Assembly: GCF_000009705.1 (NCBI RefSeq)
Contig: NC_003272.1
Span: 780,001-812,000, forward strand
Reading direction: 5' to 3'
Length of the DNA stretch: 32,000 bases
Source of the DNA: Nostoc sp. PCC 7120 = FACHB-418
GTDB lineage: Bacteria; Cyanobacteriota; Cyanobacteriia; Cyanobacteriales; Nostocaceae
In this document: positions 1 to 27,559 of the stretch, piece by piece
Layout of the letters: the number at the start of each line of letters is the position of its first letter
Position numbering within the stretch: the stretch's first letter is position 1
Made by a program: the position numbers and the translations under genes
Notes under the pieces: model-generated
Seen by the model: only the letters and a program-made list of their open reading frames with translations
Database searches by the model: none
Told to the model about the DNA's origin: nothing

Positions 1-402
1 ATCTCTTTCTTTTTGGCTTTGGCTCACGGATTTATGATGATACAAAAGAGAAATTTTGATTTTTTTGACTTCAAGACATTTGTGATTTACATCCAGGGAA
101 TTAGCATTTTCACGATTTTTACAATTCTCGCTGTTACTTCTAATGATTGGAGTGTCAAAAAGCTTAAATCTAACTGGAAACAATTACATAAACTCACTTA
201 TTTAGCCATGTTTATTCTAACCTGGCATATCTGGGATAAGATGTCTGGGCATTGGACATATTTAACTCCTATTAGTATTGTGATCATTGCCGGAATCACT
301 GTTCTATTTATGCTGAGAATGTGGATGGAACACCAAGTGAAAAGAAAGAAATTTGATGCAAAGATAAATCCAGAAAGGTTGCCAGATAATGTCACTAGAT
401 AA
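1..402 (+). CDS. Membrane protein, C-terminal part; ferric-reductase/MsrQ(YedZ)-like heme-binding TM domain (ORF open at window edge)
   Basis: Frame 1 is open from nt 1 (ISFFLALAHG...), so the M at 13 is probably internal. Several hydrophobic helices are present. WKQLHKLTYLAMFILTWH resembles the W-x-x-LH-x-x-Y...H region of YedZ/ferric-reductase TM proteins. The family call rests on motif memory only. Confidence 0.4.
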   Translation: MSFFLALAHGFMMIQKRNFDFFDFKTFVIYIQGISIFTIFTILAVTSNDWSVKKLKSNWKQLHKLTYLAMFILTWHIWDKMSGHWTYLTPISIVIIAGITVLFMLRMWMEHQVKRKKFDAKINPERLPDNVTR

Positions 403-446
403 CGTCAATATTAGTCAAGTATATTGTGAAATGAGAGAGCCTATCG

Positions 447-1547: not shown

Positions 1548-1916
1548 TGAAATATAGCCAAAAATATTTAATCGCAAATCACACATTTAATAGTGGTCGA
1601 TGGACGTTGAAACTAAATGGAAGAAGCCCGCCACTATCAATCCAAAATTGTTGAGAGTGTCCTATTTAATGTTAATTTAAAAAACGCTCTCATTTCTTCT
1701 TCCCTTTCACCTGTTACCTGTCACTTATTACCTATGTTTTTGCAGGAGCAAAAAAAATCATAAAAGTTATGAAAAGGATCAATCTCAAGTTGTAGATCAA
1801 TGTATATCTACAAAAGTGAAATTTAACCACCTAAGTAGATAAAGTTCCCTCTTTCAATTCAGTTGAACTTAATTTTCCCCACAATCAAGCAACAAAAAAA
1901 AGTACAAAGGATTTTT

Positions 1917-3218
1917 ATGCCAGATCAAGTTATCAATTGGAACAATGTATACTTGCAAACAATCCGGTCAAATGGTGGCGCTCCTACATGGATCTCCCGT
2001 ACAGGTGCAATATTACATTCTGCAATCTATGACGCGGTTAATTCCATTGAGAAAAAATACAACCCTTATTTAGAAATCATCCCGGCCAATCCTGGTGCTT
2101 CCCCAGAAGCTGCGGCAATTTACGCTGCATATACTGTCTTAACTAGTGACATCGTTTATCCTAATGCGAATTTTCCCAAATCCAAAGCTAAAAATAATAG
2201 CTTTTTTGAGACAGAACGCGACAAAGCCATTGAAGAACTAGTAAGCAGTGGTGTATCGGTACAAAGCATCGGAGATGGTAAGGAACTGGGGATCGCAGCA
2301 GCTCAAGCAATCCTGCAAAATCGCCAAGCAGACGGGTATAACGACAACACCCCTTATACTCCTGGTAATCAGCCTGGTGATTGGCGACCAACAGGTTCTA
2401 GCGCGCCAGTTACCCCCAATTGGGGCAAAGTGAAAACTTTCTCAAAAGCACCAATAAAGCAATTCCGTCCGACTCGACCAGCTGGGTTCAAGACAAAAAA
2501 GGCTCTGCTTGCCAGCCTCGAATACGCTGCTCAAGTCAATGAAGTCAAACGCCTTGGTGCTGATAACTCCACTGAACGCACCCAAGAACAAACTGATATT
2601 GCTCTTTTCTGGGCAAACGATCTGGATGGGACTTATAAGCCACCAGGACACTTGTTCAGCATCACCCAGATTGTCTCTAAATTGAAGGGACTGAGCTTTT
2701 ATGAGAATGCTCGACTGTTTGCCCTAGTAGGTTTAGGTTTAGGGGATGCCGGAATCTTAGCTTGGGATGCCAAATATAACACCGATTTAGACTTGTGGAG
2801 ACCAGAAAGTGCCATTCAATTGGCACATACAGATGGAAACCCTGGAACAGTCGCCGACCCAACTTGGAGACCTCTATCACCCAATCCTGATGGCACTCGT
2901 TTTTCACCTCCGTTCCCAGCCTATATCTCTGGTCACGCAACTTTCGGAGCGATCCATGCTGGCATCCTACGCAACTTCTTCGGCACAGACAATGTGACTT
3001 TCACAGCCACATCTGAAGATCCATCTGCTAGAGGAGCTAATGGCATCAGGGTCACACGCACATTCAATAGCTTCTCCGCAGCAGCTTTAGAAAATGGCCG
3101 CAGCCGTGTTTATCTCGGTGTGCATTATCAATGGGATGCAGATGCAGCTTATGTCTCTGGCACAAAATTGGCAGATTTTGTATCGGAAAACTTATTGACA
3201 CCATCGGTGAGATGTTAA
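1917..3218 (+). CDS. PAP2-superfamily protein, vanadium-dependent haloperoxidase / acid phosphatase-like
   Basis: PAP2 signature motifs occur in order: LWRPESAI (K/R-x6-RP-like), YISGHATFG (PSGH), SRVYLGVHYQWD (SR-x5-H-x3-D). The ORF track starts at a TTG at 1863; the first ATG (MPDQVINW) at 1917 is preferred. Confidence 0.8.
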   Translation: MPDQVINWNNVYLQTIRSNGGAPTWISRTGAILHSAIYDAVNSIEKKYNPYLEIIPANPGASPEAAAIYAAYTVLTSDIVYPNANFPKSKAKNNSFFETERDKAIEELVSSGVSVQSIGDGKELGIAAAQAILQNRQADGYNDNTPYTPGNQPGDWRPTGSSAPVTPNWGKVKTFSKAPIKQFRPTRPAGFKTKKALLASLEYAAQVNEVKRLGADNSTERTQEQTDIALFWANDLDGTYKPPGHLFSITQIVSKLKGLSFYENARLFALVGLGLGDAGILAWDAKYNTDLDLWRPESAIQLAHTDGNPGTVADPTWRPLSPNPDGTRFSPPFPAYISGHATFGAIHAGILRNFFGTDNVTFTATSEDPSARGANGIRVTRTFNSFSAAALENGRSRVYLGVHYQWDADAAYVSGTKLADFVSENLLTPSVRC

Positions 3219-3289
3219 GACAATCTTACTTTTGTTAATTAGAAATTATGCTGGCAATTTGGGAAAAGCAGAGGTATGAACTTAACTAT

Positions 3290-3708
3290 TCAAAAATCCA
3301 AAGCAGAGATAGCGTTCTGCTTCTCAGTTACACCCAGATAACGCTCCAACGCTGCCAACATCCGATGCCCTGATATCTTTTGTATGTGGCGCAAAGGTAT
3401 CCCGGCATCTTTCATCCTGATTAACGCAGCCCCCTTGAACCTGTGCGTACTTACCCCCTCAATCCCCAACCGCGCACAGGTATCTCTCTCGGTTTTTATC
3501 AGCACTCTCCTTATAGATATGCGCCCCACAGACTACTATTTAAGTTGACAATCTCATCGCGGCGCAAGTCAGTATTCAGTATCCGTATCCCGGTTGTACC
3601 CCTTGCGGTTATTTTGTGCGATAAGTATAACGGCATGGCTAACGAACGCTTACTACTCCTACCCAAAACTATCAAATTATTTGATTTTGGTGAGGGATGC
3701 GATCGCAC
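3290..3708 (-). pseudogene. Tyrosine recombinase (phage-type integrase) remnant, frameshifted and N-terminally truncated
   Basis: Two minus-strand ORFs in different frames carry consecutive integrase catalytic-domain blocks. ORF 3511-3708 has TTGIRILNTDLRRDEI (box I, TG-I/L-R-I...L...DI). ORF 3290-3529 has STHRFKGAALIRMKDAGIPLRHIQKISGHRMLAALERYLGV (box II H-x-x-R-like, GH, catalytic Y). No intact N-terminal half is present. Confidence 0.6.
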
Positions 3709-3819
3709 TTGTTGGTATTTTGAAGGCGATACCTCCGGTGGGCTACGCCTACGCTTTTAGTAAATATTATGGTTATGATAGAGACAGCAATCGCTTGTTG
3801 TGGTGGTTTTTTGTAATCG

Positions 3820-4233
3820 CTACTGTCCTTCAATTTCTTCTACAATCAACCCACCTGATTCTAATAATTGCACAGCTTCAGCCTTGGACATTTTAGCAGT
3901 GGCGATGAGGTCTGACCCTCTACCCAAACCTTGAAATACTCTAATAATTTTACCTTTCTCATCTTTTATAGTGACAAGGAAACTTTTCGTTGTAGTCATT
4001 ACCTTGCCTGCTTCTATAATTTTGACTCCTTTACTTCTTGTCTGAACTACAAAGACCTGCCCTTCTTCTATAACGTCTGTGTGAACAATATCATCAGCAG
4101 CTTTTGAGTTATTCAGTGCATAACTTGCTTGATGACAATCTGAAGACTGGGCGGTAGGAGTTTTTACAAATAAAATACCAATCAGAACAATTACACTTGC
4201 AAGTGGCAGTACGTAGAGCTTTGAAAGTTTCAT
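3820..4233 (-). CDS. Hypothetical secreted protein (signal peptide)
   Basis: 137-aa ORF with a signal-peptide-like N-terminus (MKLSKLYVLPLASVIVLIGILFVKTPTAQS). No recognisable family. Confidence 0.55.
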   Translation of the reverse strand: MKLSKLYVLPLASVIVLIGILFVKTPTAQSSDCHQASYALNNSKAADDIVHTDVIEEGQVFVVQTRSKGVKIIEAGKVMTTTKSFLVTIKDEKGKIIRVFQGLGRGSDLIATAKMSKAEAVQLLESGGLIVEEIEGQ

Positions 4234-4390
4234 GTTCTTTGTTTACTTGGAGAGTTGTTATTGTATTGTAGTTTAGGGCAAGCACATCGTAGCAACAGCA
4301 CTCAGCAATTCTCAACCATGAAATATTAATGAGCTAATGACTAACTAAATCATAACTAGCCATTAGCCACTCATTAATTAACAGCACACT

Positions 4391-4429
4391 CTCCGCGTAC
4401 CTCCGCGCTGACCTCCGCGCCCCTCTGCG
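4391..4429. repeat. GC-rich dispersed repeat (CTCCGCG/ACCTCCGCG units), inverted copy of 20489-20527
   Basis: The reverse complement of ctccgcgtacctccgcgctgacctccgcgcccctctgcg matches cagaggggcgctgaggtaggcgcggaggggcgcggag at 20489-20527 at roughly 32 of 37 positions. A partial third copy lies at about 22928-22946. Confidence 0.7.
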
Positions 4430-4436
4430 TTTAAAC

Positions 4437-5537
4437 TTAAGCAGTCCGAAAACGCGCCAACTCCTCGCCTGTCTTCGCATCATGGGCGTGGACAGTACAC
4501 ACCAGACAAGAGTCAAACGATCGCGCAACGTGTCCCACTTCCACAGGATCTCTAGAATCTTCAATAGGAGTCCCGATTAAAGCTTCCTCAATAGGGCCGC
4601 GTACCCCTTCACTATCACGGGGGCCGACGTTCCAAGTAGTCGCAGCAATCACCTGATAATTCTTAATCTTGCCACCTTCTATATCTATCCAGTGACACAA
4701 AGAACCCCGTGAGGCTTCCGTTGCACCCCAACCACGTCCGTCTTTTTCTTTGGGTTTGATATACCAAGGATCATTTAAGACAAACTCACGCAGACATCTT
4801 TCTGCTTGGCGATATAACTTGACAATTTCGTGAACTCGTGCAAGTTGACGCAAATGAATACTAGCACCACCCATTTTTTGGAAAGCATCCAAGATAAAAC
4901 CGTCGTAATGTTGCCAAGATTCGCCATGCTGACCACCTGCAACTAGCTGGCGGGCTAGGGGGCCGACTTCCAAGCGTCCGAAGTCTTGGTGTAGTACGGC
5001 TGTTGACCAAGAGTAGGCATTTTTGAAGTCTTTAGTATTTTTCTGGGTGGGTTTGGTGGTACGGTCAAAGGGGTGAACATCTGCGTTACCTTCATCATAC
5101 CAGGCGTGGGTGGTATTCTCACGGGCGAAGGTGTGATCCATCAAAGTGTGTGTATTCTCGAAGCTGTCATACACACCACTTTTCATAATCATGGCGGCGT
5201 TGCGTCCTTCGATGGTGGGCTTTTGGTATTTATCTTCATGGGGTAGGTATCCCCAGGAGACGTATTTACCCACACCAGCCCCGTATCTATCCAAACCGAT
5301 ATCTAAACCCATACGCCAATAGAAACCCAAGTCTGACTCACGATGCTTGATGTCTGCTTCTAACCAGTCCATGAAGTCATCGTAAGTTTGAATTTCTTCG
5401 TAGCGTTCCAAAGAACAACCCAACCACACAGGTTCTAACCAGTTGGTGCGGAAGTATTCGAGAATTGCCCAAGCGCGGGTAATGTCGGTTAAGGTGGGGG
5501 CGCACATCACACCACCAGGCACCATATAACTGCTGTG
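4437..5537 (-). CDS. hupL: Uptake [NiFe]-hydrogenase large subunit HupL, 3' segment (interrupted gene; includes one 16-bp core)
   Basis: The ORF begins MVPGGVMCAPTL... and ends with the C-terminal Ni-ligand motif DSCLVCTVH followed by a short tail (AHDAKTGEELARFRTA) of the kind removed by the maturation protease. It continues the reading frame of segment 14957-15467 across the repeat. Confidence 0.95.
   Translation of the reverse strand, partial: HSSYMVPGGVMCAPTLTDITRAWAILEYFRTNWLEPVWLGCSLERYEEIQTYDDFMDWLEADIKHRESDLGFYWRMGLDIGLDRYGAGVGKYVSWGYLPHEDKYQKPTIEGRNAAMIMKSGVYDSFENTHTLMDHTFARENTTHAWYDEGNADVHPFDRTTKPTQKNTKDFKNAYSWSTAVLHQDFGRLEVGPLARQLVAGGQHGESWQHYDGFILDAFQKMGGASIHLRQLARVHEIVKLYRQAERCLREFVLNDPWYIKPKEKDGRGWGATEASRGSLCHWIDIEGGKIKNYQVIAATTWNVGPRDSEGVRGPIEEALIGTPIEDSRDPVEVGHVARSFDSCLVCTVHAHDAKTGEELARFRTA
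5522..5537. repeat. 16-bp recombination core (left copy) CCATATAACTGCTGTG
   Basis: Identical to 14957-14972 in direct orientation. The reverse complement CAC AGC AGT TAT ATG G encodes HSSYM of HupL. Confidence 0.95.
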
Positions 5538-5555
5538 GCAACTGGTGATATATTG

Positions 5556-5578
5556 AAAATGTTACTGAGTAACGTTTT
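5556..5578. promoter_or_regulatory. Near-perfect 23-bp palindrome between recombination core and xisC start
   Basis: aaaatGTTACtgaGTAACgtttt, with only two asymmetric positions. It lies 19 bp from the core and 75 bp upstream of the xisC ATG. Function is unknown. Confidence 0.35.
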
Positions 5579-5652
5579 AGTAAGGCAATTTTGCTCGGTA
5601 AGAACATTTTATTTTCACCATTTCAGTTTATAAATAAGGGAATATTTAGGGA

Positions 5653-7149
5653 ATGAGCGGACAAAATCAGGGGAATTGCGAGGAGACATATTCCACATCT
5701 ACACATGAATATGCAAATGCAGACTCAACCGACTGGTTCGCAGATATGTTTGCAGATTTTGAGCCGCAGAACACCACAGACGGCAGCTATAGGGGAACAA
5801 TGGCGAAAATAAAAGCAACGGAATTACAGTATCAAGCAGTTTTTGAACAGAAGTTAGTCGAAGCCAATACTAATTTAAAAAGGGAGAGAATAAGAGTTAG
5901 CATTAAACAGACTGGTAATTCTCTCCAATTACGAGCTACCCTACCCTTAAAACCAGGGGATGGTAGTTTAGGTAAGACAAAAAAACAGTATGATTTGTCT
6001 CTAGGGATACCAGCAAATTTAGAAGGACTGAAAACTGCAATTGAAGAAAGTTACGAGTTGGGTAAATTAATCGCTCGTCATACTTTCGAGTGGAATGAGA
6101 AGTATTTAGGAATTAAATCTAGAGAGAAGCAAGAAATAAAAACTATTGGGGAATTATTAGATAAATTTGAGGAAAAATATTATCAAACCCGTCAGAAAAC
6201 TATAACCAGTCAAAATACTTTTCCTAACTATATATCTGTAATTAAAAGAAACTTTCCTCTCACCCATTTAGCCACAAAAGAAAATTTTGAGGAAATTATT
6301 AATTCAGTTCAGGGGAATAAAAAAAATGAACTAATTGCCGTAACTTCTGTTTTTATTAAAACCTTTAATTTAGGATTTCAACTCGATGTTAAACGTGATA
6401 ATGTCACCCCTGCTCATCGAGAAATACCTGAAGATGACAAAATAATATATTCTTTTGACCTCTTTGAAAAATTCGCCCTCAATCGCAAAAATACAAATAT
6501 TAGTGATGAAATCGACACCTGGGAAATGTGGCGTTGGGTATATGGAATGTTGGCGACATTTGGGTTAAGACCAAGGGAACTATTTGTACAACCAGATATT
6601 AATTGGTGGATGTCTCCCCAAAATCTAGACCATACTTGGAAAGTCAATAAAAATACAAAAACTGGATATCGAGAAGTTATTCCTTTTGTTCCTGAATGGA
6701 TAGAATTATTTGATTTAAAAAATCCCAAACCATTAAAGATTTTAGAAAAAAAGGTGACAAAAATTGCATCTGTACAAAATATTAATTGGATGCGGAGAGA
6801 TATATCCAGATGGTTTAGAAAAGTGGGAATTGAGTTTCAACCCTACGATTTGCGTCATGCTTGTGCAATTCGAGCGCATCTTCAAGGAATACCTATTAAA
6901 GCAGCAGCAGATAATTTAGGTCATACTGTTGATGAACATACAAAAACCTATCAAAGATGGTTTGGTATTGAAAATAGGAAAAAAGCCTTTGGTGAGGTAA
7001 TTAGTCAAAAGTCATTAATTGAGTTGCAGAAGAATGAAATATTGGCGTTACGGATGGAGAATGAAAGGTTAAGGTTGGAGGTGGAAAAGTTGAAATTTTC
7101 GACAACTAAAAATCCAGAGGACTGTGAACAGCTTTACCATCAAGGTTAA
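5653..7149 (+). CDS. xisC: Site-specific recombinase XisC (XisA/XisC family, divergent tyrosine recombinase)
   Basis: The 498-aa ORF lies at the element border. It contains the [14 protein letters not shown]...[43 protein letters not shown] block that I recognise as conserved with XisA. C-terminal catalytic residues are present ([26 protein letters not shown]). Confidence 0.9.
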
Positions 7150-7252
7150 GAATGTGCGTATAAATCATGGTGATTTTGACATCCTTGTGTCCGAGTAATT
7201 CCTGAAAAGTGCGAATGTCATAAGAATTTTGCAGTAAATGGGTAGCTCGCAT
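7106..7252 (-). pseudogene. Remnant of the 3' end of an integron-integrase/XerD-like tyrosine recombinase gene
   Basis: Manual minus-strand translation gives [48 protein letters not shown]. This matches the ATHLL-x-x-GYDIRTVQELLGH-x-DV-x-TTMIYTHVL-x-x-GG-x-GV-x-SPLD C-terminus typical of IntI-type integrases. A stop lies 6 codons upstream of the M, so only about 45 codons survive. The last 44 nt overlap the xisC 3' end in antisense. Confidence 0.6.
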
Positions 7253-7329
7253 CTTGCACCTGTTCCATCAATTTTTTTGGGCGTGTTCCATAATAAAAAC
7301 ATCCTGAAAATTCTGTCTAATCTCCTAAT

Positions 7330-8319
7330 ATGGAATATATTTCATCAGCTTTGCGTTTGGAATTTCGTGAATTCTGTGTCGAGCTAGTTCTGCGTCAGAT
7401 TGATGATATGTTCCAAATGGCTGGTATTCAACCAGGCCAACCTGAGCGTGTTGTTAGTGGTGCGAGACGTTCACGTGTTGAGGAATACTATGCATCTATA
7501 GACTGGACTAACTTAACGGATACTCAAAAATTCTTAAAAGTTATAGGATTGGTGTTATCGCAATCCTATATTTCTGATGAGAGAAAAGAGTTTATACGAA
7601 ATATATGTATAAAAGAAGGCTTGATTGTTGAGGGGGAACAAATCCAACTGCCGCAAATAACATCTCCTAATGAACCTGATGATTTATTTATGCATCAATT
7701 TCCTGGGGGACTTCCTTTTGGATTGGTGAAACCTGAGTTTGCTGTAACTGCCAAAGAAGGCAAGCAATCACTGAAATTTGAATTGAAGTCTGGCATAGGT
7801 ATTATTTGGCGGGGTGTATATCCAAATTTTGATTTTCCAACTTTTCAAACTGCTTGTGGAATTAACTCGGAAACAAACCTAGCACTAAAAAAAGCTCTTC
7901 TTGCCATGAATCAAACTGAATCTGAAAAAATATTTTTTCAGTCATATGCCAAACATTTCGGCATGGCGGATAATCATATACCAATGTTAATTCCACAAGC
8001 CTGGATACAATGGCATTCGTCATCAAAAAAGGTTTTGCAAGCTTCAGGAAGTTCACTAGCAAAAGAACTGTATCGTGTAGATTTTGTCGCATTTTGGAAT
8101 AATCATAGATATGCGATATTGATTGACGACATTAGCCATTACGCGATAAAGCATGGTAATCAGTGGATAGCTGATGAGGAAACCTACTCAAAACGCCTAG
8201 AGGAAGATCGAAAATTACAAGTAGAGGGATGGAATATTTTTAGAGTGAGTAATTGGGAGGTCAGGCAGAATAAAGTGAGTGAAATAGTTATTGACTTACA
8301 AAAGTTCATTGGATTTTAA
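7330..8319 (+). CDS. Hypothetical protein with C-terminal Vsr/DUF559-like (restriction-endonuclease-fold) domain
   Basis: 329-aa ORF. The C-terminal block YRVDFVAFWNNHRYAILIDDISHY...EEDRKLQVEGWNIFRVSNWEV follows the DUF559/Vsr-like pattern (RVDF..., hydrophobic-I-(D/E)-x-D-x-x-H, DR-x-L-x-x-x-GW-x-x-x-R-x-x-x-x-E). The N-terminal about 230 aa are unassigned. Confidence 0.55.
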   Translation: MEYISSALRLEFREFCVELVLRQIDDMFQMAGIQPGQPERVVSGARRSRVEEYYASIDWTNLTDTQKFLKVIGLVLSQSYISDERKEFIRNICIKEGLIVEGEQIQLPQITSPNEPDDLFMHQFPGGLPFGLVKPEFAVTAKEGKQSLKFELKSGIGIIWRGVYPNFDFPTFQTACGINSETNLALKKALLAMNQTESEKIFFQSYAKHFGMADNHIPMLIPQAWIQWHSSSKKVLQASGSSLAKELYRVDFVAFWNNHRYAILIDDISHYAIKHGNQWIADEETYSKRLEEDRKLQVEGWNIFRVSNWEVRQNKVSEIVIDLQKFIGF

Positions 8320-8523
8320 GTGCGATGCCTGCGGCGGGCGTAGCCATTGCCTATCTTGTCGGGTGCTTACTCCGCCGATAAATTCATGGGAACACACCAA
8401 GATTGTAGACTTTAAGCAAGCGATCGCAGTCTAGAGGTGTTAGATTTGCCGTTAAACATATTTGAGTGCGATCGCTCAATTTCCATTATCTTGTGCTTCC
8501 GTAACTACTATTAACTGCGATCC
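8319..8523. repeat. Cassette-terminal repeat, copy A (HIP1-rich, hairpin-forming)
   Basis: It starts on the last base of the 7330-8319 stop codon. It aligns with 9346-9552 over its full length, and with 10343-10453 except for a roughly 50-bp internal block. The core is AGCGATCGCAGTC-N36-GAGTGCGATCGCT. Confidence 0.85.
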
Positions 8524-8637
8524 CTATCAAGTAGAGAATCTTAGCTTAGATTATCAAGGGATTGAAATAGGATCACGTTAATATAGTTTAATGTAATATG
8601 AAGAGAATGTTTTAATAAATTAACTCGTATTTTACCT

Positions 8638-8973
8638 TTGATAATTCATATTTTACGAGAACCTGCAACACCTAGCCAAATCAACGAGATGCTTCAAGCT
8701 AATCGTTTCTATATTAAAACAGCCGTAGATATACGTCATCAAATTTTGGCAGGTGGAGGTGAAATGCACTCGGACTGCGAAACAATTTTACTGGAGAATG
8801 GAAGTCAACAGCAGGATATTTGGGGCGCGAGTTGGAATCCTATTTCTCAAGAAATTTTCTATGAATCAATGGTAAATCTCCGACCACGTCAAAATAGAGC
8901 GATGGAAATTTTAGATCCAGCGATTCGGGAAGAGGTCAAACAAATCATCCACAAGTTATTAGGAGGCGTATGA
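8638..8973 (+). CDS. DUF5674-like small protein
   Basis: 111-aa ORF with a TTG start and no in-frame ATG. MIIHILREPATPSQINEML...AVDIRHQILAGGGEMHSDCE...DIWGASW matches my memory of the DUF5674 consensus. It overlaps the next ORF by ATGA. Confidence 0.55.
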   Translation: MIIHILREPATPSQINEMLQANRFYIKTAVDIRHQILAGGGEMHSDCETILLENGSQQQDIWGASWNPISQEIFYESMVNLRPRQNRAMEILDPAIREEVKQIIHKLLGGV

Positions 8974-9317
8974 ATAACTGGACTTTAGAACAAACTGCAT
9001 TTCGGTGCGATCGCCTTTCTGTACGTCTTGAACGATTAGCACAGAACTTTCTGCAAATGGCATCTCTCAGTTTGGATGGGGTTAATGGGGAAGCTGTACT
9101 TGGGATTGTTAGAGAAAGTAAAGTATTTTTAGAACTGACAGCGATTGATTTAGATGTGGACAGTGCCTTTGAACTGGCTCAAATGCAACGTCAATTGTCT
9201 CGATGGCATATTCATTGGTGGTCAACTTGGGCAAGTGATTCTAGTCGTCTGGAAATTTCAACTTTGTCTCAAACCTGGGCAAATCGAATTAAACAGATGG
9301 CAAGAGTTCTGGTTTAA
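8970..9317 (+). CDS. Hypothetical protein, translationally coupled to the DUF5674-like gene
   Basis: 115-aa ORF. Its ATG overlaps the upstream TGA (ATGA), and AGGAGG lies at 8961-8966. It looks helical, with a Trp-rich C-terminal part (SRWHIHWWSTWASD). No family recognised. Confidence 0.55.
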   Translation: MNNWTLEQTAFRCDRLSVRLERLAQNFLQMASLSLDGVNGEAVLGIVRESKVFLELTAIDLDVDSAFELAQMQRQLSRWHIHWWSTWASDSSRLEISTLSQTWANRIKQMARVLV

Positions 9318-9345
9318 ATTCCCATCTCTTAACTTTGATATGCTT

Positions 9346-9552
9346 AGTGCGATGCCTGCGGCGGGCGTAGCCATCGCCTATCTTGTGGGGTGCTTACTCC
9401 GCCGATAAATTCCTCTTAACGTACCAAGATTGTGGACTTTAATCAAGCGATCGCAGTCTAGAAGTGTTAGATTTACTGTTAAACATATTTGAGTGCGATC
9501 GCTCAATATTCATTTTCTTGTGCTTCCTTAACTACTATGTAACTGCGATCGC
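9346..9552. repeat. Cassette-terminal repeat, copy B
   Basis: Starts 29 bp after the 8970-9317 stop and is near-identical to copy A. The sequence just beyond it (about 9553-9567, CAATATCCAAACAAAG) reappears at the left edge of the second ATPase repeat (13129-13144). Confidence 0.85.
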
Positions 9553-9687
9553 TCAATATCCAAACAAAGTGCGATCGCCGATCTTGTAGGATGCATTAAT
9601 GAAATGTAATGCACCTTTTGGATGCTTATTATTTCTGCGATACGCTTTTTCGCTAAATTATAATCAGGGAAACAGCAAGATGAGATT

Positions 9688-9927
9688 ATGAACTTAGATA
9701 CAATTCAACAAGATATTGAGTCTCTTCCTCCCGATGCACAACAAATCATAGTGGATCTCGTAGAAGTTCTGAAAAAACGCTACCTTCTGAATCAACACGA
9801 ATCTTCAGCAAATTCCTTACAAGACTGGTCAGACTTTATCGGTTGCATAGAAGCTGAAACAGACCTCTCAAAAAACTATAAAAACTACTTAGACCATGAA
9901 CTTAACCAAAAATATGATCATAGTTGA
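9688..9927 (+). CDS. Type II antitoxin, DUF2281-like
   Basis: 79-aa ORF. The N-terminal IQQDIESLPPDAQQIIVDLVEVLKKRY matches the DUF2281 antitoxin pattern. It overlaps the downstream PIN gene. Confidence 0.6.
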   Translation: MNLDTIQQDIESLPPDAQQIIVDLVEVLKKRYLLNQHESSANSLQDWSDFIGCIEAETDLSKNYKNYLDHELNQKYDHS

Positions 9928-10339
9928 TACAGGCTTTTGGTTAGCTCTTGCCAATAAAAAAGATACAGTTCATATATCCGCCAAAAAACGATTTCAAGAT
10001 TTAGCTAATCAGCAATTTATTACGACTTGGTGTGTCGTCACGGAAACGTGCTATCTATTACAAAAAAGAGTAGGAGTAGATGCTCCAAAAATCTTTATTC
10101 ATAAAATTTCTACAGGAAAGCTACAAATCTTTGATCTGAAACAACATCATTGCCAGCGTATTGAAGAACTGATGGAAAAATATAAAGACTTACCGATGGA
10201 TTTAGCCGATGCCTCTCTCGTTATTTTGGCAGAAGAATTAGGTCATGGTCAAATTTTATCGGTTGATTATCGAGACTTCAACACCTATCGCTGGAAAAAT
10301 ACAGAACCTTTTGATAACCTCTTTCAGGAATTTTTATGA
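9896..10339 (+). CDS. PIN-domain toxin (VapC-like ribonuclease)
   Basis: PIN acidic residues occur in the expected context: IIVDTGFWLAL, VVTETCYLL, PMDLADASLVILAEE, SVDYRDF. The start is either 9896 or, more likely, the ATG at 9914 (MIIVDTG). Confidence 0.75.
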   Translation: MNLTKNMIIVDTGFWLALANKKDTVHISAKKRFQDLANQQFITTWCVVTETCYLLQKRVGVDAPKIFIHKISTGKLQIFDLKQHHCQRIEELMEKYKDLPMDLADASLVILAEELGHGQILSVDYRDFNTYRWKNTEPFDNLFQEFL

Positions 10340-10342
10340 CGT

Positions 10343-10453
10343 AGTGCGACTATAAATTCCTGGGAATGTAGCAGGATTATAGAATTTAATCAAGCGATCG
10401 CAGTCTAGAAGTGTTAGATTTACTGTTAAACATATTTGAGTGCGATCGCTCAA
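10343..10453. repeat. Cassette-terminal repeat, copy C (short form)
   Basis: Starts 4 bp after the PIN gene stop. It equals copies A/B minus the internal tgcctgcggcgggcgtagcc...ctccgcc block and keeps the AGCGATCGCA...TGCGATCGCT hairpin core. Confidence 0.85.
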
Positions 10454-12081
10454 ACAAAGAAATCAATCATACAAAATACTTACGCCCGAATCACAGTAAT
10501 CCTACGCTGATTTTCTGTCACCACAACCTGAGTTGACAAACGTTCTTCCATTGGCAAAGCATTTTTCCGCCTATCAAACACAAATAACCAACCAAAATCC
10601 AACCCCAAACGCCCTAAATAGGATTCTAACTGCTCAATCCCCTCAGCTTGGGGGTCACGCTTTTTCTCCCGCCATACCTTTAACTCAATACCTAACGTGA
10701 CATCTTTGTAACGCAGACATAAATCCATTCTGTCGCTACCAATTGCATATTCCCGTTCTAGGGTTCCACCACCATTAACAACACGATGCAAGAAAGCCAT
10801 TAATACGATATGCGGTGCAATTTCATGATAGCCAGTGCTACCTAATAACGGTTCTCCATGCTGTCGCCAAAACTTGAGAAATGCTGCAAGTAACGCATCT
10901 ATATTTAACTCTCCTTCTGGGGTTAACCAAGTTGGTGCAATCACTGGTAAAGAAGCCATTGGTGTCACCGTTAACACCCTGGGCAAAACTTCTCGATAAA
11001 TGGGATTAGCAATGGTTAATCCACCTTGGGGGTGCATTTTACATAAACCTAAATCAATCACAAATTGAATGTCATCATTGGGTATATCCCCCAATTCCAA
11101 ACCCGCTAACATCGGCTCGATAATTGCTTTGATTCTTGGTTCTCGTAAGCGTTCAGCTAAACTATCAAGATGAGTATCTTGACGAGCAATTAATATTTCT
11201 TTAGCTTGTAAAATATGTTCTTTAGTAATAGCAATACTTCTATCTTTCACCATTTTTTCCACAACTTCTTTAGCCAGAGCATTCACTAACCAAGGTTGTC
11301 CTTGGGTTAAATCAAAGGCTGTTGCAGTTGCTTCTGGTGTGAAAATTTGTCCTGTTGCTGCTGTATGTTGTTGATATAGTTCTACAACTTCTTCGGCATT
11401 AAAATTTCTCAGAGTAATGGAAGTGACTTTAATATTAAAAGGACTGGATGTGTTTAACCTGTCACTACCACCGGATGCTACTTTATAATCTCGCACATCC
11501 CGTAAACCAATTAATCCTACTGATGAGGGGAAATTTTCTGGACGACTGCGATAGCCTTCACGTAACTGTCGTAAAACTGAAATTAATGTTTGGTCTTGTA
11601 AGGAATCAATTTCATCTATAAGTAATACTAACGGACGCTTGATAGCTCTTGACCAAGCTCTTAAATTTTCGCCAATTCTCTGTCCAGGCGCATTATAAAC
11701 CCAATTTGGGGGTTGTAGTTCTGGGGGTAAGTTATCTTCAATTGTATTCTGCCAAGTTCCCAAAATTGCTAATTCTGCTGCACTGGGGTCATGATTAAAT
11801 GCACTTCCTACCTCTACCGATACCATTACTGCTGCATAAAGTCCTGTATCGGTAAGTTGCTGTGCTAGAGCTAACATTGCTGTGGTTTTCCCTGTTTGTC
11901 GCGGTGCATGAAGGACAAAATAACTTTCTTGTTCAATCAGCAATGATAAGTCGGGGAGACGACTTGTGGCTGAGATGGTGTAGTGCTTTTCAGGGTTACA
12001 AGGGCCTGCAATGTTGAACCAGCGAGACATGGGATTTTGGCAGTTGGCGGACACTTTGAGTTTAGACGATTTTGGAGTTGG
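10451..12081. repeat. 1.63-kb direct repeat, copy 1 (contains the intact ATPase gene)
   Basis: Aligns with 13136-14772 from caaacaaagaaatcaatc to gattttggRgttgg. The part encoding the C-terminal two thirds of the protein is near-identical. The part encoding the N-terminal third contains divergent patches. Confidence 0.9.
10480..12030 (-). CDS. P-loop ATPase with C-terminal PD-(D/E)XK nuclease-like domain
   Basis: Walker A is HAPRQTGKTT and Walker B is LVLLIDEID. The C-terminus has EREY...DRMDLCLRYKDVTLGIELKVW (D...E-x-K). The ATG at 12030 (MSRWFNIAGPC) is preferred over the GTG at 12054 because the paralog starts at the equivalent ATG. Confidence 0.8.
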   Translation of the reverse strand: MSRWFNIAGPCNPEKHYTISATSRLPDLSLLIEQESYFVLHAPRQTGKTTAMLALAQQLTDTGLYAAVMVSVEVGSAFNHDPSAAELAILGTWQNTIEDNLPPELQPPNWVYNAPGQRIGENLRAWSRAIKRPLVLLIDEIDSLQDQTLISVLRQLREGYRSRPENFPSSVGLIGLRDVRDYKVASGGSDRLNTSSPFNIKVTSITLRNFNAEEVVELYQQHTAATGQIFTPEATATAFDLTQGQPWLVNALAKEVVEKMVKDRSIAITKEHILQAKEILIARQDTHLDSLAERLREPRIKAIIEPMLAGLELGDIPNDDIQFVIDLGLCKMHPQGGLTIANPIYREVLPRVLTVTPMASLPVIAPTWLTPEGELNIDALLAAFLKFWRQHGEPLLGSTGYHEIAPHIVLMAFLHRVVNGGGTLEREYAIGSDRMDLCLRYKDVTLGIELKVWREKKRDPQAEGIEQLESYLGRLGLDFGWLFVFDRRKNALPMEERLSTQVVVTENQRRITVIRA

Positions 12082-12379
12082 GTATTTTTTTCTGTTTAAA
12101 CTCTGTGGGAGTCAACCAGTATAAATAAAAACTTCCTATTAAGTCCTCTCTGTTTGGTAGGAATAGTACTTAACCCGGATCACATTCTGCACCTATTTGA
12201 GTATTTTTTTATACTTTATTTTATCAAGAGTTTTGTGAAAAATTCTGTTTAATATCCGAAGAAGGATATGAAAAAGAGATTTTTTGTATAATTTTATATA
12301 ATAATGAGGTGATAAACTAAATATATTTCAGGTTTTGATGATGTTTTCAATAGATAAGATACTGATTTGATTAATTGCC

Positions 12380-12952
12380 ATGACAAATCAAGGGCTTGAG
12401 TCGATTAGTGTGAATGAACAGACAATTTACTGGGCAGTGCGTTCTGGAGTTGCCGTAGGAGTACAGAAATATACAAAAACTCATGTGACTGGTGGCTATG
12501 GAGATTCAGCTCCATCCTCTCAAATTGAGACGATTATAGAGTTTTCTCTTCAACAAGAGAGTGGAAATGAAATTGAGATGAAATTTAGAAGAGAAGACAT
12601 TCGAGTTCGAGACGGTCAGAGGGTATCAGCAGTTTTTGGCTATACCGAAAGTAAAACTAGCTACTGGCTAATCTTTATCAACCATGATAGTAACAAATGG
12701 TATTGGGTAGATACACCTTATTCATTTTTTAGGAAGCTTGAAATATTTGTATTGTTATCAGATTGGTGGATTGCATTTTTTCTAGCAGTCATTGCTATCT
12801 CTCTAGTTGTCTCTTCAGAGTGGGCGATTTTTGGAATAATTGTTGGAACTTTTGGAATTATATTTCTTATAATTCAGAGATGTCGATGTCAATTAGCTTG
12901 GAATATGGTAAAGCCTCAAATTATTGAGATATTATCTCAATTAAGAGAATAA
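12380..12952 (+). CDS. Hypothetical two-TM membrane protein in AT-rich DNA
   Basis: 190-aa ORF with a soluble N-terminal about 125 aa followed by two hydrophobic helices (IFVLLSDWWIAFFLAVIAISLVV, WAIFGIIVGTFGIIFLII). The gene and its upstream region are visibly AT-rich compared with the flanks. Confidence 0.6.
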   Translation: MTNQGLESISVNEQTIYWAVRSGVAVGVQKYTKTHVTGGYGDSAPSSQIETIIEFSLQQESGNEIEMKFRREDIRVRDGQRVSAVFGYTESKTSYWLIFINHDSNKWYWVDTPYSFFRKLEIFVLLSDWWIAFFLAVIAISLVVSSEWAIFGIIVGTFGIIFLIIQRCRCQLAWNMVKPQIIEILSQLRE

Positions 12953-13135
12953 AGTAATTTTCCATTCATGAAAAGCAGTTGCTGCGTTAACCGGTCGAAC
13001 AATCTGCTTGCACACTGACTGTATTGAAATGCTTGATTAAGAACGAAAGTTTACTAGCGGCGGATGAAGAGGCGCGTTAAACATCTTTGAAAAAAGCGAT
13101 GGGCAAAGCCCGGTCTCCGACCATCGCGCAATATC

Positions 13136-14772
13136 CAAACAAAGAAATCAATCGTAAAAAATACTCACGCCCGAATCACAGTAATCCGACGCTGATTTTC
13201 CGTCAGCACAACCTGAGTTGACAAACGTTCTTCCATTGGGAGGGCATTTTTACGCCTGTCAAACACAAATAACCAACCAAAATCCAACCCCAAACGAGCT
13301 AAGTAGGATTCTAACTGCTCAATTCCCTCAGCTTGGGGGTCACGCTTTTTCTCCCGCCATACCTTTAACTCGATACCTAACATGACATCTTTGTAACGCA
13401 GACATAAATCCATTCTGTCACTACCAATTGCATATTCCCGTTCTAGGGTTCCACCACCATTAACAACACGATGTAAGAAAGCCATTAATACGATGTGAGG
13501 GGCGATTTCATGATAGCCAGTGCTACCTAATAACGGTTCTCCATGCTGTCGCCAAAACTTGAGAAATGCTGCCAGTAGCCCATCTATATTTAACTCTCCT
13601 TCTGGGGTTAACCAAGTGGGTGCAATCACTGGTAAAGAAGCCATTGGTGTCACCGTTAACACCCTGGGCAAAACTTCTCGATAAATGGGATTAGCAATGG
13701 TTAATCCACCTTGGGGGTGCATTTTACATAAACCTAAATCAATCACAAATTGAATGTCATCATTGGGTATATCCCCCAATTCCAAACCCGCTAACATCGG
13801 CTCGATAATTGCTTTGATTCTTGGTTCTCGTAAGCGTTCAGCTAAACTATCAAGATGAGTATCTTGACGAGCAATTAATATTTCTTTAGCTTGTAAAATA
13901 TGTTCTTTAGTAATAGCAATACTTCTATCTTTCACCATTTTTTCCACAACTTCTTTAGCCAGAGCATTCACTAACCAAGGTTGTCCTTGGGTTAAATCAA
14001 AGGCTGTTGCTGTGGCTTCTGGTGTGAAAATTTGTCCTGTTTCTTGTGTATGTTGTTGATATAGTTCTGCCACTTCCTCGGCATTGAAATTTCTCAGGGT
14101 AATGGAAGTGACTTTAATATTAAAAGGACTGGATGTGTTTAATCTGTCACTCCCACCGGATGCTACTTTATAATCTCGCACATCTCTTAAACCGATTAAT
14201 CCCACCGATGAGGGAAAATTTTCTGGACGATTAGGAAAACCATCTCGTAATTGTCGTAAAACTGAAATTAATGTTTGGTCTTGTAAGGAATCAATTTCAT
14301 CTATAAATAATACTATTGGAAGATTTATAGCTCTTGACCAAGCTCTTAAAAAAGCCTTAATTCTATTTCCTGCTTCTTGCTGTTGCGATTGTTTAGCTGA
14401 TGGTTGTAATTCTGGAGGTAATCTATCCTCAATCGTATCATACCAAGTTCCCAAAATTGCCAATTCTGCCGCACCTGGATCATGATTGAATGCACTTCCC
14501 ACCTCGACCGATACCATTACTGCTGCATAACGTCCTGTATCAGTAAGTTGCTGTGCTAAAGCTAACATTGTGGTGGTTTTCCCTGTTTGTCATGGTGCAT
14601 GAAGGACAAAATAACTACGCTGTTGGATTAGCTCCTCCAAATCTGGTAATCGTGTTGTTGGAGATAGCATATAGTGGATATCGTCTTCACATGGACCTGC
14701 AATATTGAACCAGCGAGGCATGGGATTTTGGCAGTTGGCGGACACTTTGAGTTTAGACGATTTTGGGGTTGG
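13136..14772. repeat. 1.63-kb direct repeat, copy 2 (contains the disrupted ATPase gene)
   Basis: See 10451-12081. It ends about 185 bp from the right recombination core. Confidence 0.9.
13165..14721 (-). pseudogene. P-loop ATPase/PD-(D/E)XK paralog inactivated by an in-frame TGA beside the Walker A motif
   Basis: Manual translation from the ATG at 14721 gives MPRWFNIAGPCEDDIHYMLSPTTRLPDLEELIQQRSYFVLHAP*QTGKTTTMLALAQQL. The TGA at 14590-14592 corresponds to CGA (Arg) in copy 1. The 467-aa ORF in the track restarts after the P-loop. Confidence 0.8.
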
Positions 14773-14956
14773 AGTGAGGCAATGTAGGGAAAAGTTAGGT
14801 AACGCCTGAGAAAAGCAAATAACTTTTAGTAGATAAAAATAAATGGATTGATGATATTTCTGGAGTGGCTTTATTGCCTAATTTAAGGAAAAATCAGGGA
14901 ATCATTGCACCTATCCTGGTAAATCCTGACTACATAAGCAATTTCCTAATTTATTT

Positions 14957-14972
14957 CCATATAACTGCTGTG
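14957..14972. repeat. 16-bp recombination core (right copy) CCATATAACTGCTGTG
   Basis: Identical to 5522-5537 and lies inside the hupL reading frame. Confidence 0.95.
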
Positions 14973-15467
14973 CGGCCATTGTCCGCCAAACAGGGCGTAA
15001 ATTTCTACGGGTTTGCTGGAAATGGTCACGCCGAGTTCATAAGATTTACCTGTGTAGGCAGAAAAGCGGCGGACGGCTTCATCGTAGAAGCGGCTACTAC
15101 GGTATTTTTTATTTGTTAGGTCAATGGCGAACAATCCATAAAAGTAGCGGGGGATGCTTTGGATGGTTTCGACAATTTGACCGAGGTTTCTGGCTAAGAT
15201 GGCGTTGCGGGGAACGGTTGTATTCCATGCTGTATCTAATGCCCATGATGCAGAGGTTAAGTGAGAAGCACCGCAGATACCGCAGATACGAGGCGTAACA
15301 ATTAATCCAGCTTGGGGGTCTTTACCACGAAGAATGATTTCAAAGCCGCGAAATAGTTCGGCGTGTGTCCAGGCGTTAACTACCCTTCCGTCTTCTATTT
15401 CCACACGGACATCTAAATCACCCTCGACTCTACCGACGGGTGATATATCTAATGTTTTGATTGTCAT
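14957..15467 (-). CDS. hupL: Uptake [NiFe]-hydrogenase large subunit HupL, 5' segment (interrupted gene)
   Basis: MTIKTLDISPVGRVEGDL... carries the N-terminal Ni-Fe ligand motif RICGICGASH. The frame runs to ...GGQWPHSSYM and then meets a stop 3 codons into element DNA (EIN*). Confidence 0.95.
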
Positions 15468-15470
15468 ATT

Positions 15471-15535
15471 TGTTAGTTGTTGGTTGTCGGTTGTCGGTTG
15501 TCAGTAGCAACTGACCATTGACTACTGACCACTGA
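15471..15535. repeat. hupS-hupL intergenic STRR heptamers with complementary arm (hairpin potential)
   Basis: tgttagttgttggttgtcggttgtcggttgtcagt is followed by actgaccattgactactgaccactgac. The two halves are imperfectly complementary around a short loop (agca). Confidence 0.6.
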
Positions 15536-16498
15536 CTAAACTGTGAAAAAGTCTTCTTCTGCCCATTTGGGGGCTGTGTCTTTAGCCACCATTGTGAGGA
15601 CAGCGTAGTTTTTATTGCTTACTCCTGGCGGTAGTTCTTTGGGTACTCCCATGATGGTTTGGGTTTTAAATACGGTTCCGGGTTTGAGGTCGAAGAAGGG
15701 GAACTCTGGTTCTGTGCAACCTAAACAGGGCATTCCGGCGCGGGTTTTGGAGGAGACGCGATTCCAGAGGATGCGGTTGCAGGAGGAATGAGTCATGGGG
15801 CCGCGACAACCCAAGTCGTAGAATAAACAGCCTTTGCGTTGTCCAAATTCGGCGGTGGTGGCTTTGTAGGCGAAGTGGACGTTACGAGTACAGCCTGTTT
15901 GGGTGAAGGTGTTAAAGAAGGTTTGGGGGCGATTGAGTTCATCGAGGGCGATGTCGCCGATGCGTCCGGTAGCGATCGCCACTAATATCTGCGTAATCCA
16001 ATCGGGATGGGCTGGACAACCGGGAATATTGATGACTGGTAGCCCTGATTTGGTGCGGAAATCTTGACCCAAGAAACCGCCACCTTTGCGTTTGAGGAAT
16101 TGCAAGCCTTGGGATTCGCTGGGGTTTGGTTCCATTGCGGGGATTCCTCCCCAGGTGGCGCAGTCTCCCACGGCGACGACAAAACTAGCGGCTTGGGCGA
16201 GGTCGGTTAGCCAATCTTTCATGGGGCGATCGGCAAAACGGTTCCATTCGCCTGTACCGTTGGGGGCGTTAACTACAGTGCCTTCAAAGACCAAAATGTC
16301 TAGAGGGATTTTGCCTAAGATGCAATCCCAAAGTAAGGTTTGTAAGTTGTCGCCTAGTTCCAGTCCTAAGGAAGGATGCCAAAGTACCTTGATCCCAAAA
16401 TCAGCAATTAAATCGCATACTGTCGGTTCTTCGGCGTTGAGAAAAGACATGGTGTTGCCTGAACAAGCACCACCTTGCAGCCAGAGTACGTTAGTCAT
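15536..16498 (-). CDS. hupS: Uptake [NiFe]-hydrogenase small subunit HupS
   Basis: 320 aa. The N-terminal WLQGGACSGN and later GDCATWGGIP, PGCPAHPDW, CRGP...C and CLGCTEPEFP Fe-S cluster ligand motifs are present. There is no twin-arginine signal peptide, as is usual for cyanobacterial HupS. It lies immediately upstream of hupL. Confidence 0.95.
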   Translation of the reverse strand: MTNVLWLQGGACSGNTMSFLNAEEPTVCDLIADFGIKVLWHPSLGLELGDNLQTLLWDCILGKIPLDILVFEGTVVNAPNGTGEWNRFADRPMKDWLTDLAQAASFVVAVGDCATWGGIPAMEPNPSESQGLQFLKRKGGGFLGQDFRTKSGLPVINIPGCPAHPDWITQILVAIATGRIGDIALDELNRPQTFFNTFTQTGCTRNVHFAYKATTAEFGQRKGCLFYDLGCRGPMTHSSCNRILWNRVSSKTRAGMPCLGCTEPEFPFFDLKPGTVFKTQTIMGVPKELPPGVSNKNYAVLTMVAKDTAPKWAEEDFFTV

Positions 16499-16517
16499 TG
16501 GCTATTAGTTTGTATAT

Positions 16518-16604
16518 TGTTAGTTGTCAGTTGTCAGTTGTCAGTTGTTAGTTGTTAGTTGTTAGTTGTTAGTTGCCAGTTGTCAGTTATCAGTTGTTAG
16601 TTGT
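16518..16604. repeat. STRR array, about 12 heptamers (TTGTCAG/TTGTTAG), directly upstream of hupS start
   Basis: Tandem 7-mers are visible from 16518. They are followed at 16611-16626 by the complementary cactgactactgacaa. Confidence 0.9.
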
Positions 16605-16998
16605 TTTGCCACTGACTACTGACAAAACTCTATCCTCTTGTGAGTGGAGTTTTATCAGGTGTGATGCAGGTGTTGACGCTTGTAGAGGTTCACCTGTTTA
16701 TAAAGGTTTACTTTTCAGAATACAGTATTTTTTATCTGATTGAATATCATTAAATGAATTTAATTTTTGAGAATCGTTAAATCAAAATTATATTTGTTTT
16801 AATAGTAGTTTTTTAGACAGATTTTAATTGATAAATCTGCGGTTTTTATAACTCGATTTTTAGGCAAAAATACTGGGTTATTAGATGAGCTAATTTGATT
16901 GACAATCACACTCTAGAATTTATATATGTGGTGTTTTATATTTAAAAGTTAATGAGGCTTTTTCTATACTGCCAGTCAAGAGAGGAACGTAATAGCGA

Positions 16999-17265
16999 AT
17001 GAATGAATTTTTTAGTAACTCTCATCTTCGTGAATTTCTGATCAATATGGTAACAAGTGATGTCACTTTCATCACGGGATTGTTTTGGTTAGTTGTAGCC
17101 ACGCTTATATCAATGATTGGCGGCGCTATTGGTGGGATGGTATTGGCTGGGAAAGATATTGGCTATGGTTTTTCAGCCACAATTGGAGCATTGTTTGCGC
17201 CGGCGGGGGTAATTCCTGCTATTGTTTTGGGTCTGGGTTTACTAAGTTTCTTGAGTAATTATTAG
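16999..17265 (+). CDS. Small hydrophobic protein (first ORF of the conserved cluster upstream of hypF)
   Basis: 88 aa with two Gly-rich TM helices (LFWLVVATLISMIGGAIGGMVLAG, GALFAPAGVIPAIVLGLGLL). It is followed 8 nt later by the next ORF, with GGAGG before that start. Confidence 0.6.
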   Translation: MNEFFSNSHLREFLINMVTSDVTFITGLFWLVVATLISMIGGAIGGMVLAGKDIGYGFSATIGALFAPAGVIPAIVLGLGLLSFLSNY

Positions 17266-27451: not shown

Positions 27452-27559
27452 ATTGCAATTAACTAAAATCCCTATCAGGGATTGAAACATCCCACAGGTT
27501 ATTCAGCCTTGCTATTGCATCATTGCAATTAACTAAAATCCCTATCAGGGATTGAAACG
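27452..27559 (+). CRISPR. Orphan mini-CRISPR: two identical 37/38-bp repeats and one 32-bp spacer
   Basis: cATTGCAATTAACTAAAATCCCTATCAGGGATTGAAAC occurs at 27452-27489 and 27522-27559. It has an internal palindrome (CCCTATCAGGG) and ends in ATTGAAAC, the Cas6-type 8-nt tag. The spacer is atcccacaggttattcagccttgctattgcat. No cas genes are in the window. Confidence 0.75.

Follow-up and report, generated by a model that had tools for sequence, protein, structure and literature searches.

In Anabaena/Nostoc sp. PCC 7120, the uptake hydrogenase gene hupL is split by an element that carries the recombinase gene xisC (alr0677), and programmed excision restores the gene. Here we analysed a 32,000-nt stretch of Nostoc sp. 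PCC 7120 DNA (NC_003272.1, positions 780,001–812,000; hereafter the window, in whose numbering coordinates are given), which contains a hupL gene interrupted in this way. Passages of PMC4874684, PMC11249958, and PMC13056922 place the excision late in heterocyst differentiation (Carrasco et al. 1995, 2005), and XisC was needed to reconstitute hupSL according to the passage of PMC13056922 that cites Carrasco 2005. According to PMC3610870, the PCC 7120 element has the 16-bp repeat CACAGCAGTTATATGG and holds ten open reading frames (ORFs).

Three further systems are comparable. The nifD element of PCC 7120 and other Nostocales, with its recombinase XisA, likewise splits a heterocyst gene between short direct repeats and carries the recombinase gene at one end, but it differs in target gene and cargo and has an 11-bp core, GGATTACTCCG (PMC3610870). 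XisA-type proteins are 47–50% identical to XisC and have the invariant R-Y-R-Y residue set in common with it. The fdxN element of PCC 7120 is much larger, at 55–59 kb. It resembles the hupL element in its developmentally timed excision, which restores a heterocyst gene (PMC4874684), whereas its recombinase XisF is a serine recombinase, of other chemistry and family. The skin element of Bacillus subtilis (SpoIVCA; sigK), discussed alongside the hupL element in a passage of PMC6957869, is excised only in the terminally differentiated cell, in which the gene is rebuilt; it differs in belonging to another phylum, in its serine recombinase, and in its prophage origin, and has no sequence relationship to the hupL element.

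The locus in the window proved to be the hupL element of PCC 7120: the repeat, the insertion codon, XisC, HupS, all0686, and the joined HupL were all identical. The finding is therefore already known, and a classic programmed DNA rearrangement of bacterial development was correctly re-identified. A first-pass annotation, made from the letters of the window alone, had likened the feature to the PCC 7120 element and called it known biology. Both statements agreed with the published repeat and the PCC 7120 protein entries, and the comparison with PCC 7120 that it proposed led beyond likeness to identity.

Results

Split hupL and its restoration

The interruption of hupL is defined by five features.

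4437–5525, minus strand: hupL 3′ fragment, 362 amino acids (aa), which starts MVPGGVMCAPTL and carries the C-terminal Ni-Fe site motif DSCLVCTVH
5522–5537, no strand assigned: xisC-proximal recombination core CCATATAACTGCTGTG, in hupL sense CAC AGC AGT TAT ATG G (HSSYM)
5538–14972, no strand assigned: excised segment, 9,435 bp
14957–14972, no strand assigned: distal recombination core CCATATAACTGCTGTG
14946–15467, minus strand: hupL 5′ fragment, 173 aa (MTIKTL...), which provides residues 1–170 and carries the Ni-Fe site motif RICGICGASH

The 16-mer CCATATAACTGCTGTG occurred exactly twice on the plus strand of the window, and no third copy was found there with up to two mismatches allowed. None of 100 shuffled controls yielded two matches. 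Base-by-base comparison showed that the identity between the two sites is confined exactly to the 16-mer, with the flanks differing from its edges onward. The spacing between the cores was 9,419 bp (5538–14956), and the in-silico deletion of 5538–14972 removed 9,435 bp, that is, this spacing and one core copy. In the deletion product, both minus-strand ORFs were fused into a single ORF of 531 aa (170 + 361). The 5′ fragment ends in ...GGQWPHSSYM, after which EIN and a stop codon are supplied by the DNA of the element, and the first Met of the 362-aa ORF is M170 of HupL, which is encoded by the core and followed by residues 171–531. The insertion site corresponded to the conserved codons ...QWPHSSYM/VPGG..., with the fragments ending at residue 170 and starting at 170/171.

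The joined HupL was aligned with seven uninterrupted HupLs of 531 aa. The alignment comprised 531 columns with no gap, the identities were 84–87%, and residues 161–183 (GGQWPHSSYMVPGGVMCAPTLTD), which span the junction, were invariant. The joined protein was also identical in sequence to BAB72634.1, a Nostoc sp. PCC 7120 entry. The first-pass annotation had given the positions of the repeats, their spacing, and the sum of 170 and 361 residues, and all of these numbers were reproduced on recomputation; the deletion and alignment that it suggested as a check yielded the colinear, gap-free product described above.

Reverse-complemented, CCATATAACTGCTGTG gives the published repeat CACAGCAGTTATATGG. 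The ORFs found within the element, nine of at least 79 aa and a 48-aa relic described below, amount to ten, in agreement with PMC3610870. Judged by these exact sequence matches, the feature in the window is the hupL element of Anabaena/Nostoc sp. PCC 7120 itself, the type example.

The excised form was sought in public data. Logan assemblies of public sequencing runs were searched for the exact joined HupL, which was called on 12 contigs, and three matching contigs were fetched (L130–L132). These contigs, from SRR10208180, SRR32280513, and SRR10208179, were 100.000% identical to the in-silico excised window over 5,675, 3,778, and 2,713 nt, respectively. Each carried a single CACAGCAGTTATATGG core at the junction and lacked exactly the bases 5538–14972. 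Whether the runs were derived from DNA or from complementary DNA, a contiguous hupL requires a rearranged template. Precise excision at the predicted bases occurs in real data, and the junction contigs do not tell the cell type.

XisC recombinase

The recombinase gene lies directly inside one end of the element.

5653–7149, plus strand: xisC, encoding a 498-aa XisA/XisC-type tyrosine recombinase, an exact match to BAB72635.1 and UniProt XISC_NOSS1

Its ATG is located 115 nt inside the left core, which is the repeat adjoining the 3′ part of hupL. Both this start and the assignment to the XisA/XisC family had been proposed in the first-pass annotation, and both were borne out. XisC scored 28.9 bits against Pfam PF00589 (Phage_integrase), for which the cut-off is 27.1, and the precomputed Pfam annotation of the exact protein comprised XisAC_N (PF27551), XisAC_2nd (PF27132), and Phage_integrase. 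The sole relative in the PDB at the sequence level was the archaeal XerA (4a8e). In the alignment of the two proteins, PYDLRH of XisC corresponded to PHQLRH of XerA, with Y398 at the position of the canonical His and Y433 at that of the nucleophilic Tyr. Y398, R401, H424, and Y433 were placed by this alignment, and R306 and K336 by their motif context only (GLRPRE and KTKTG). All six residues were invariant in 21 XisC/XisA relatives with 45–91% identity to XisC. An R-Y-R-Y variant of the catalytic tetrad, with Tyr in place of His, has been described for XisA and XisC (PMC3610870).

An AlphaFold model of XisC, built on the alignment of the 21 proteins, had a mean predicted local distance difference test score of 80.4. 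The top Foldseek matches of this model were XerA, lambda Int, XerH, and Cre, with a probability of 1.00. As judged from the alignment and the predicted fold, XisC is a tyrosine recombinase with the R-Y-R-Y catalytic set typical of XisA and XisC.

Conserved ends of the element in related genomes

When each species was represented by one genome, scanning retrieved 80 loci with XisC relatives of 77–96% identity. At 76 of the 80 loci, a core with up to two mismatches was located approximately 115–330 bp upstream of the xisC match and adjoined hupL residues 166–531 on the opposite strand. With the window included, the core was conserved at this threshold in 79 of 81 sequences. The second core was inside the fetched DNA at 39 loci and adjoined hupL residues 1–170 wherever the contig held that fragment. 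The length of the 40 elements, including that of the window, ranged from 3,686 to 11,517 bp (median, 7,196 bp), the PCC 7120 element having 9,435 bp. At Rivularia-type loci the hupL 3′ fragment appeared to reach residue 149; this was considered as a longer duplication, a reading that was rejected.

The two cores of an element are not always identical. Of the 40 repeat pairs (window and 39 loci), 13 had cores that differed at position 14 or 16, in most cases with ...GCTATG on the xisC side. Among 79 sequences, the core on the xisC side read ...GCTATG in 34 and ...GCAATG in 5, and the distal core was nearly always ...GCTGTG. The ...GCTATG variant is synonymous, with CAT for CAC, both of which encode His. 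These variants limit the identity shared by the cores to 12–13 nt, and the common stretch is therefore CCATATAACTGC, which is the shared repeat GCAGTTATATGG reported earlier (bioRxiv 10.1101/629832) and contained in both repeats of the window. Since CCATATAACTGC is common to all cores, strand exchange would have to lie inside it.

Conservation extends from the cores into the non-coding ends of the element.

5538–5652, plus strand: inner end from the core to the start of xisC, with most columns at least 90% identical in 78 sequences
14770–14956, plus strand: inner end adjoining the distal core, approximately 170 nt, mostly with at least 90% column identity in 40 sequences

The former is a candidate for the xisC promoter together with an accessory recombinase-binding region, and the latter is a candidate accessory-site region; both proposals are drawn from sequence conservation. 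The motif AGGGAAT occurred nine times in the window against 5.4 copies expected, which is not significant window-wide. Similar motifs recurred in the conserved inner ends, and three of the nine window copies fall within these approximately 300 nt. We retained AGGGAAT as a hint of an arm-type site.

One further contig, from a metagenome-assembled genome (Aulosira sp. DedQUE10 contig_162, L033; 8,540 bp), has the 16-bp core at both ends and one whole hupL element inside. This layout is the assembly-graph outcome expected when the integrated form and the excised circle coexist in a sample.

Cargo modules

The element also carries the following genes.

7330–8319, plus strand: 329-aa cargo ORF of unassigned function, whose product shares 89% identity with a protein of Microcystis aeruginosa
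8638–9317, plus strand: two-ORF cargo module consisting of DUF5674 (111 aa) and a 115-aa ORF, present in 10–12 other elements
9646–10349, plus strand: VapBC-like toxin-antitoxin module, with a 79-aa ORF (9688–9927, weak DUF2281 match) and a PIN-domain ORF (9896–10339)
10480–12054, minus strand: AAA_35-like ATPase gene, full-length copy, 524 aa, GTG start
12380–12952, plus strand: 190-aa ORF between the AAA copies, for which other elements contain no relatives
13165–14568, minus strand: second AAA-like copy, all0686, 467 aa, an exact match to BAB72644.1 and 93% identical to the first copy

Homology to the elements of other species broke at identical sharp coordinates, namely 7329–8322, 8465/8604–9317, 9646–10349, and 10352 onward. 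Among the 80 related elements, the 329-aa ORF was present in one only (L021), and its 90%-identity cluster consisted mostly of Microcystis members. This distribution suggests a recent horizontal transfer between orders. The homology of the DUF5674 module stopped at its stop codon, 9317. The VapBC-like block of 704 bp was 94–98% identical in approximately 15 elements with differing neighbours; it starts just 5′ of a promoter-like sequence, TTGCTA...CTATAAT, and ends inside a HIP1 palindrome (GTGCGA|TCGC).

Homologues of the AAA_35-like ATPase were found at 32 of the 80 related loci, nearly all within the element. In the window, this gene lies in a direct duplication of approximately 1.6 kb (10451–12081 and 13136–14772; offset 2,685–2,691 bp) with approximately 91% DNA identity, and the all0686 copy is without the first 59 aa, the Walker A motif included. 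A variant contig of the same lineage (L127, JGI 3300030446) carries a single AAA copy, and the element would then be approximately 6.75 kb. When the cargo was examined with PADLOC, no defence system was recognised and the only match, to mad8, was below the threshold. In PHROGs the integrase was the sole match.

Oriented repeats between the modules

A repeat of 100–190 nt follows each of three cargo modules.

8319–8511, plus strand: inter-module repeat copy 1, including the palindrome TTGAGTGCGATCGCTCAA
9346–9538, plus strand: inter-module repeat copy 2
10342–10453, plus strand: inter-module repeat copy 3

In its 3′ part, the repeat is a member of a family whose tandem unit is 72 nt long (GCGATCGCTCAAAATCCATTATCTTGTGCTTCCTTAACTG...). 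The orientation of this family was assessed by counting the 18-mer TCTTGTGCTTCCTTAACT with up to three mismatches in the window and the 80 loci (approximately 1.4 Mb). On the xisC strand, 107 copies lay within elements or rightward of the proximal core; one copy was on the other strand, and none was found in the 805 kb outside elements. In an unbiased metagenome scan, the exact 19-mer was detected on 45 contigs and the extended motif on 31. The extended motif was co-oriented with xisC on all 13 metagenome contigs that carry xisC. One motif copy (L094:10385) was found away from any hupL context, in a small island where its neighbour is a methyltransferase-like gene.

The first approximately 40 nt of the repeat copies in the window (e.g. 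9346–9385), AGTGCGATGCCTGCGGCGGGCGTAGCCATCGCC, are a separate, generic short dispersed repeat of Nostocales, which was found with 90–100% identity on 22 Nostocales plasmids. Interpretation of the repeat arrays as CRISPR was rejected, as the spacers are themselves repeated, the tandem unit being 72 nt. A text search of papers for the repeat sequences gave no match.

Integrase relic

The end of xisC overlaps a fragment of another recombinase gene.

7106–7252, minus strand: C-terminal relic of an integron-integrase-like tyrosine recombinase, 48 aa; Pfam PF00589, E 3.5e-9

The relic is convergent with xisC and overlaps its last 44 nt. Its best model was TIGR02249, the integron integrase, with E 1.1e-18 versus approximately 1e-11 for XerC/XerD. 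At least 16 further hupL elements carry this relic at the same position, never in intact form; upstream of the match, the frame stays open for 5 aa in the window and for no more than 82 aa in 16 other elements. A search of protein collections with the 48 aa returned only other short fragments and no full-length relative.

We then compared the interior of the element with integrons. The relic adjoins a row of small, sharply bounded modules split by co-oriented repeats, as in integrons; by contrast, the modules have promoter-like sequences of their own, and one module boundary lies inside a HIP1 palindrome. No intact intI with an adjacent attI was found, the 48-aa C-terminal relic being all that is present. 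Interpretation of the repeats as attC sites found no clear support: the R''/L''-L'/R' architecture was not recognised. By eye, the repeat unit, set against the RYYYAAC and GTTRRRY ends of the imperfect inverted repeats of attC, has ATTAAC...GTTAAT only approximately 30 nt apart, and it is HIP1 palindromes that give rise to the hairpins predicted for it. Membership of the element interior among integrons is not supported.

A second, unrelated C-terminal relic of a tyrosine recombinase (3290–3529, minus strand, 79 aa; PF00589, E 7.7e-6) is located outside the element, approximately 0.9 kb past the 3′ end of hupL.

Neighbourhood of the element

Upstream of hupL, in the same operon, is the gene for the other hydrogenase subunit.

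15536–16498, minus strand: hupS, uptake hydrogenase small subunit, with Pfam Oxidored_q6 and NiFe_hyd_SSU_C, an exact match to BAB72645.1

Heptamer tandem repeats were found in the hupS–hupL spacer (15476–15536; GTTGTCG ×3.9 and ACTGACC ×3.9) and just upstream of hupS (16517–16605; TTGTTAG ×12.7), and these are similar to cyanobacterial STRR repeats. A terminator-like hairpin of 16 pairs is present 3′ of hupL (4332–4368, minus strand). The other flank of the element is a divergent cluster with NifU-like and NHL-repeat genes, followed by hypF, hypD, hypE, hypA, and hypB. Two Rfam CRISPR-DR5 repeats (27452–27488 and 27522–27558, plus strand; 57.6 bits each) with one 33-nt spacer form an orphan mini-array, whose neighbours are hypB and a trypsin/PDZ protease gene.

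Discussion

By summarizing the above results, we consider it very nearly certain that XisC recombines the two direct repeats, whereupon the 9,435-bp element leaves and an in-frame hupL is restored. The window represents the vegetative-cell configuration of the hupSL region of PCC 7120, with hupL broken after codon 170. XisC would perform conservative site-specific recombination between the two 16-bp direct repeats, probably with strand exchange within the first 12–13 nt of the core (CCATATAACTGC[T]). The element is predicted to depart as a circle with the junction sequence ...TTTATTTCCATATAACTGCTGTGGCAACTGG..., while one repeat copy would remain in the chromosome. The rebuilt 531-aa hupL would then be transcribed together with hupS.

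No result contradicted this explanation, and three set limits to it. The pattern of the circle junction gave no match in a scan of viral_contigs. A perfect NtcA box (GTA-N8-TAC) was present neither between the core and xisC nor upstream of hupS, and the developmental control of xisC is, for want of a box in the former interval, unexplained by the sequence. The size of the element in the 1995 work, as quoted in a passage of PMC3610870, is 10.5 kb versus 9,435 bp in the sequence, the only discrepancy with the described element; we interpret the older figure as a mapping estimate.

Among the other explanations, the most durable is that the segment is a selfish integrated mobile element or a degenerate integrative island, for which the conserved block of hupL codons serves as the attachment site; its excision would be tolerated, not useful, in terminal cells and the developmental switch a by-product. 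The cargo is of the type found in mobile DNA (the VapBC-like module, AAA-like ATPases, the Microcystis-like ORF, and a second integrase relic) and differs between species, with elements of 3.7–11.5 kb whose ends stay conserved, and many hupL genes are without any element, as in the uninterrupted HupLs and in bioRxiv 10.1101/629832. Against this, the exact site and the position of xisC are retained in 76 of 80 genomes, and the restoration is precise and in frame. We regard this account as possible but on the whole unlikely; moreover, it interprets the same mechanism in evolutionary terms and does not compete with excision by XisC.

General homologous recombination between the repeats, without XisC, could also remove the segment, and the repeats are indeed direct and identical in the window. 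A length of 16 bp is, however, very short for RecA-type recombination, and the architecture persists in those 13 of 40 elements whose cores differ at position 14 or 16. The duplication of 1.6 kb with approximately 91% identity would be a much better substrate, and it is this duplication that has collapsed in one variant. In addition, xisC is always adjacent, and a requirement for xisC is reported in the passage of PMC13056922 mentioned above. Recombination of this kind is hence very improbable as the route of excision.

Equally hard to credit is the reading of hupL as a dead pseudogene in which the 16-bp repeat is a mere target-site duplication. It draws on the report of two fragments by gene callers, which called the exact 173-aa product on 25 public contigs and the 362-aa product on 61, as expected from the mis-annotation that the first-pass annotation had pointed out. 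Both fragments are nevertheless intact and conserved, and their joined product aligns without gaps at 84–87% identity with HupLs of functional length. The neighbouring recombinase gene is also intact with all catalytic residues present, and the excised junction was found in three independent read assemblies. The gap-free alignment and the excised junction refute the pseudogene reading.

A split produced by faulty assembly or scaffolding of the window is practically negligible as a possibility; nothing counted in its favour, and it is refuted by two results: the same arrangement recurs in dozens of species, and positions 1–17149 were 100.000% identical (17,149 nt) to the independent assembly GCA_014696465.1 and 99.97% identical to a second, AP018216.1.

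Excision by XisC leaves the nature of the cargo region as a separate matter. Instead of random junk, hupL elements could contain a cassette platform, as a remnant or still at work. This would accord with the relic, fixed at one position in at least 17 elements, and with the small, sharply bounded modules that recur beside differing neighbours and are separated by oriented repeats (approximately 65–116 nt). We put this forward only tentatively and hold it to be doubtful.

The main finding adds no new biology, and its practical value is in annotation: the 16-bp core together with xisC permits the automatic repair of split hupL calls on dozens of public contigs. Of interest to specialists are the conserved inner ends, the core variants that limit the region of strand exchange, the sharp modules with their near-private oriented repeat, and the integrase relic at a fixed position. 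If the cassette-platform proposal were true, these elements, besides being excised in development, would provide Nostocales with a means of gathering accessory genes and passing them between one another.

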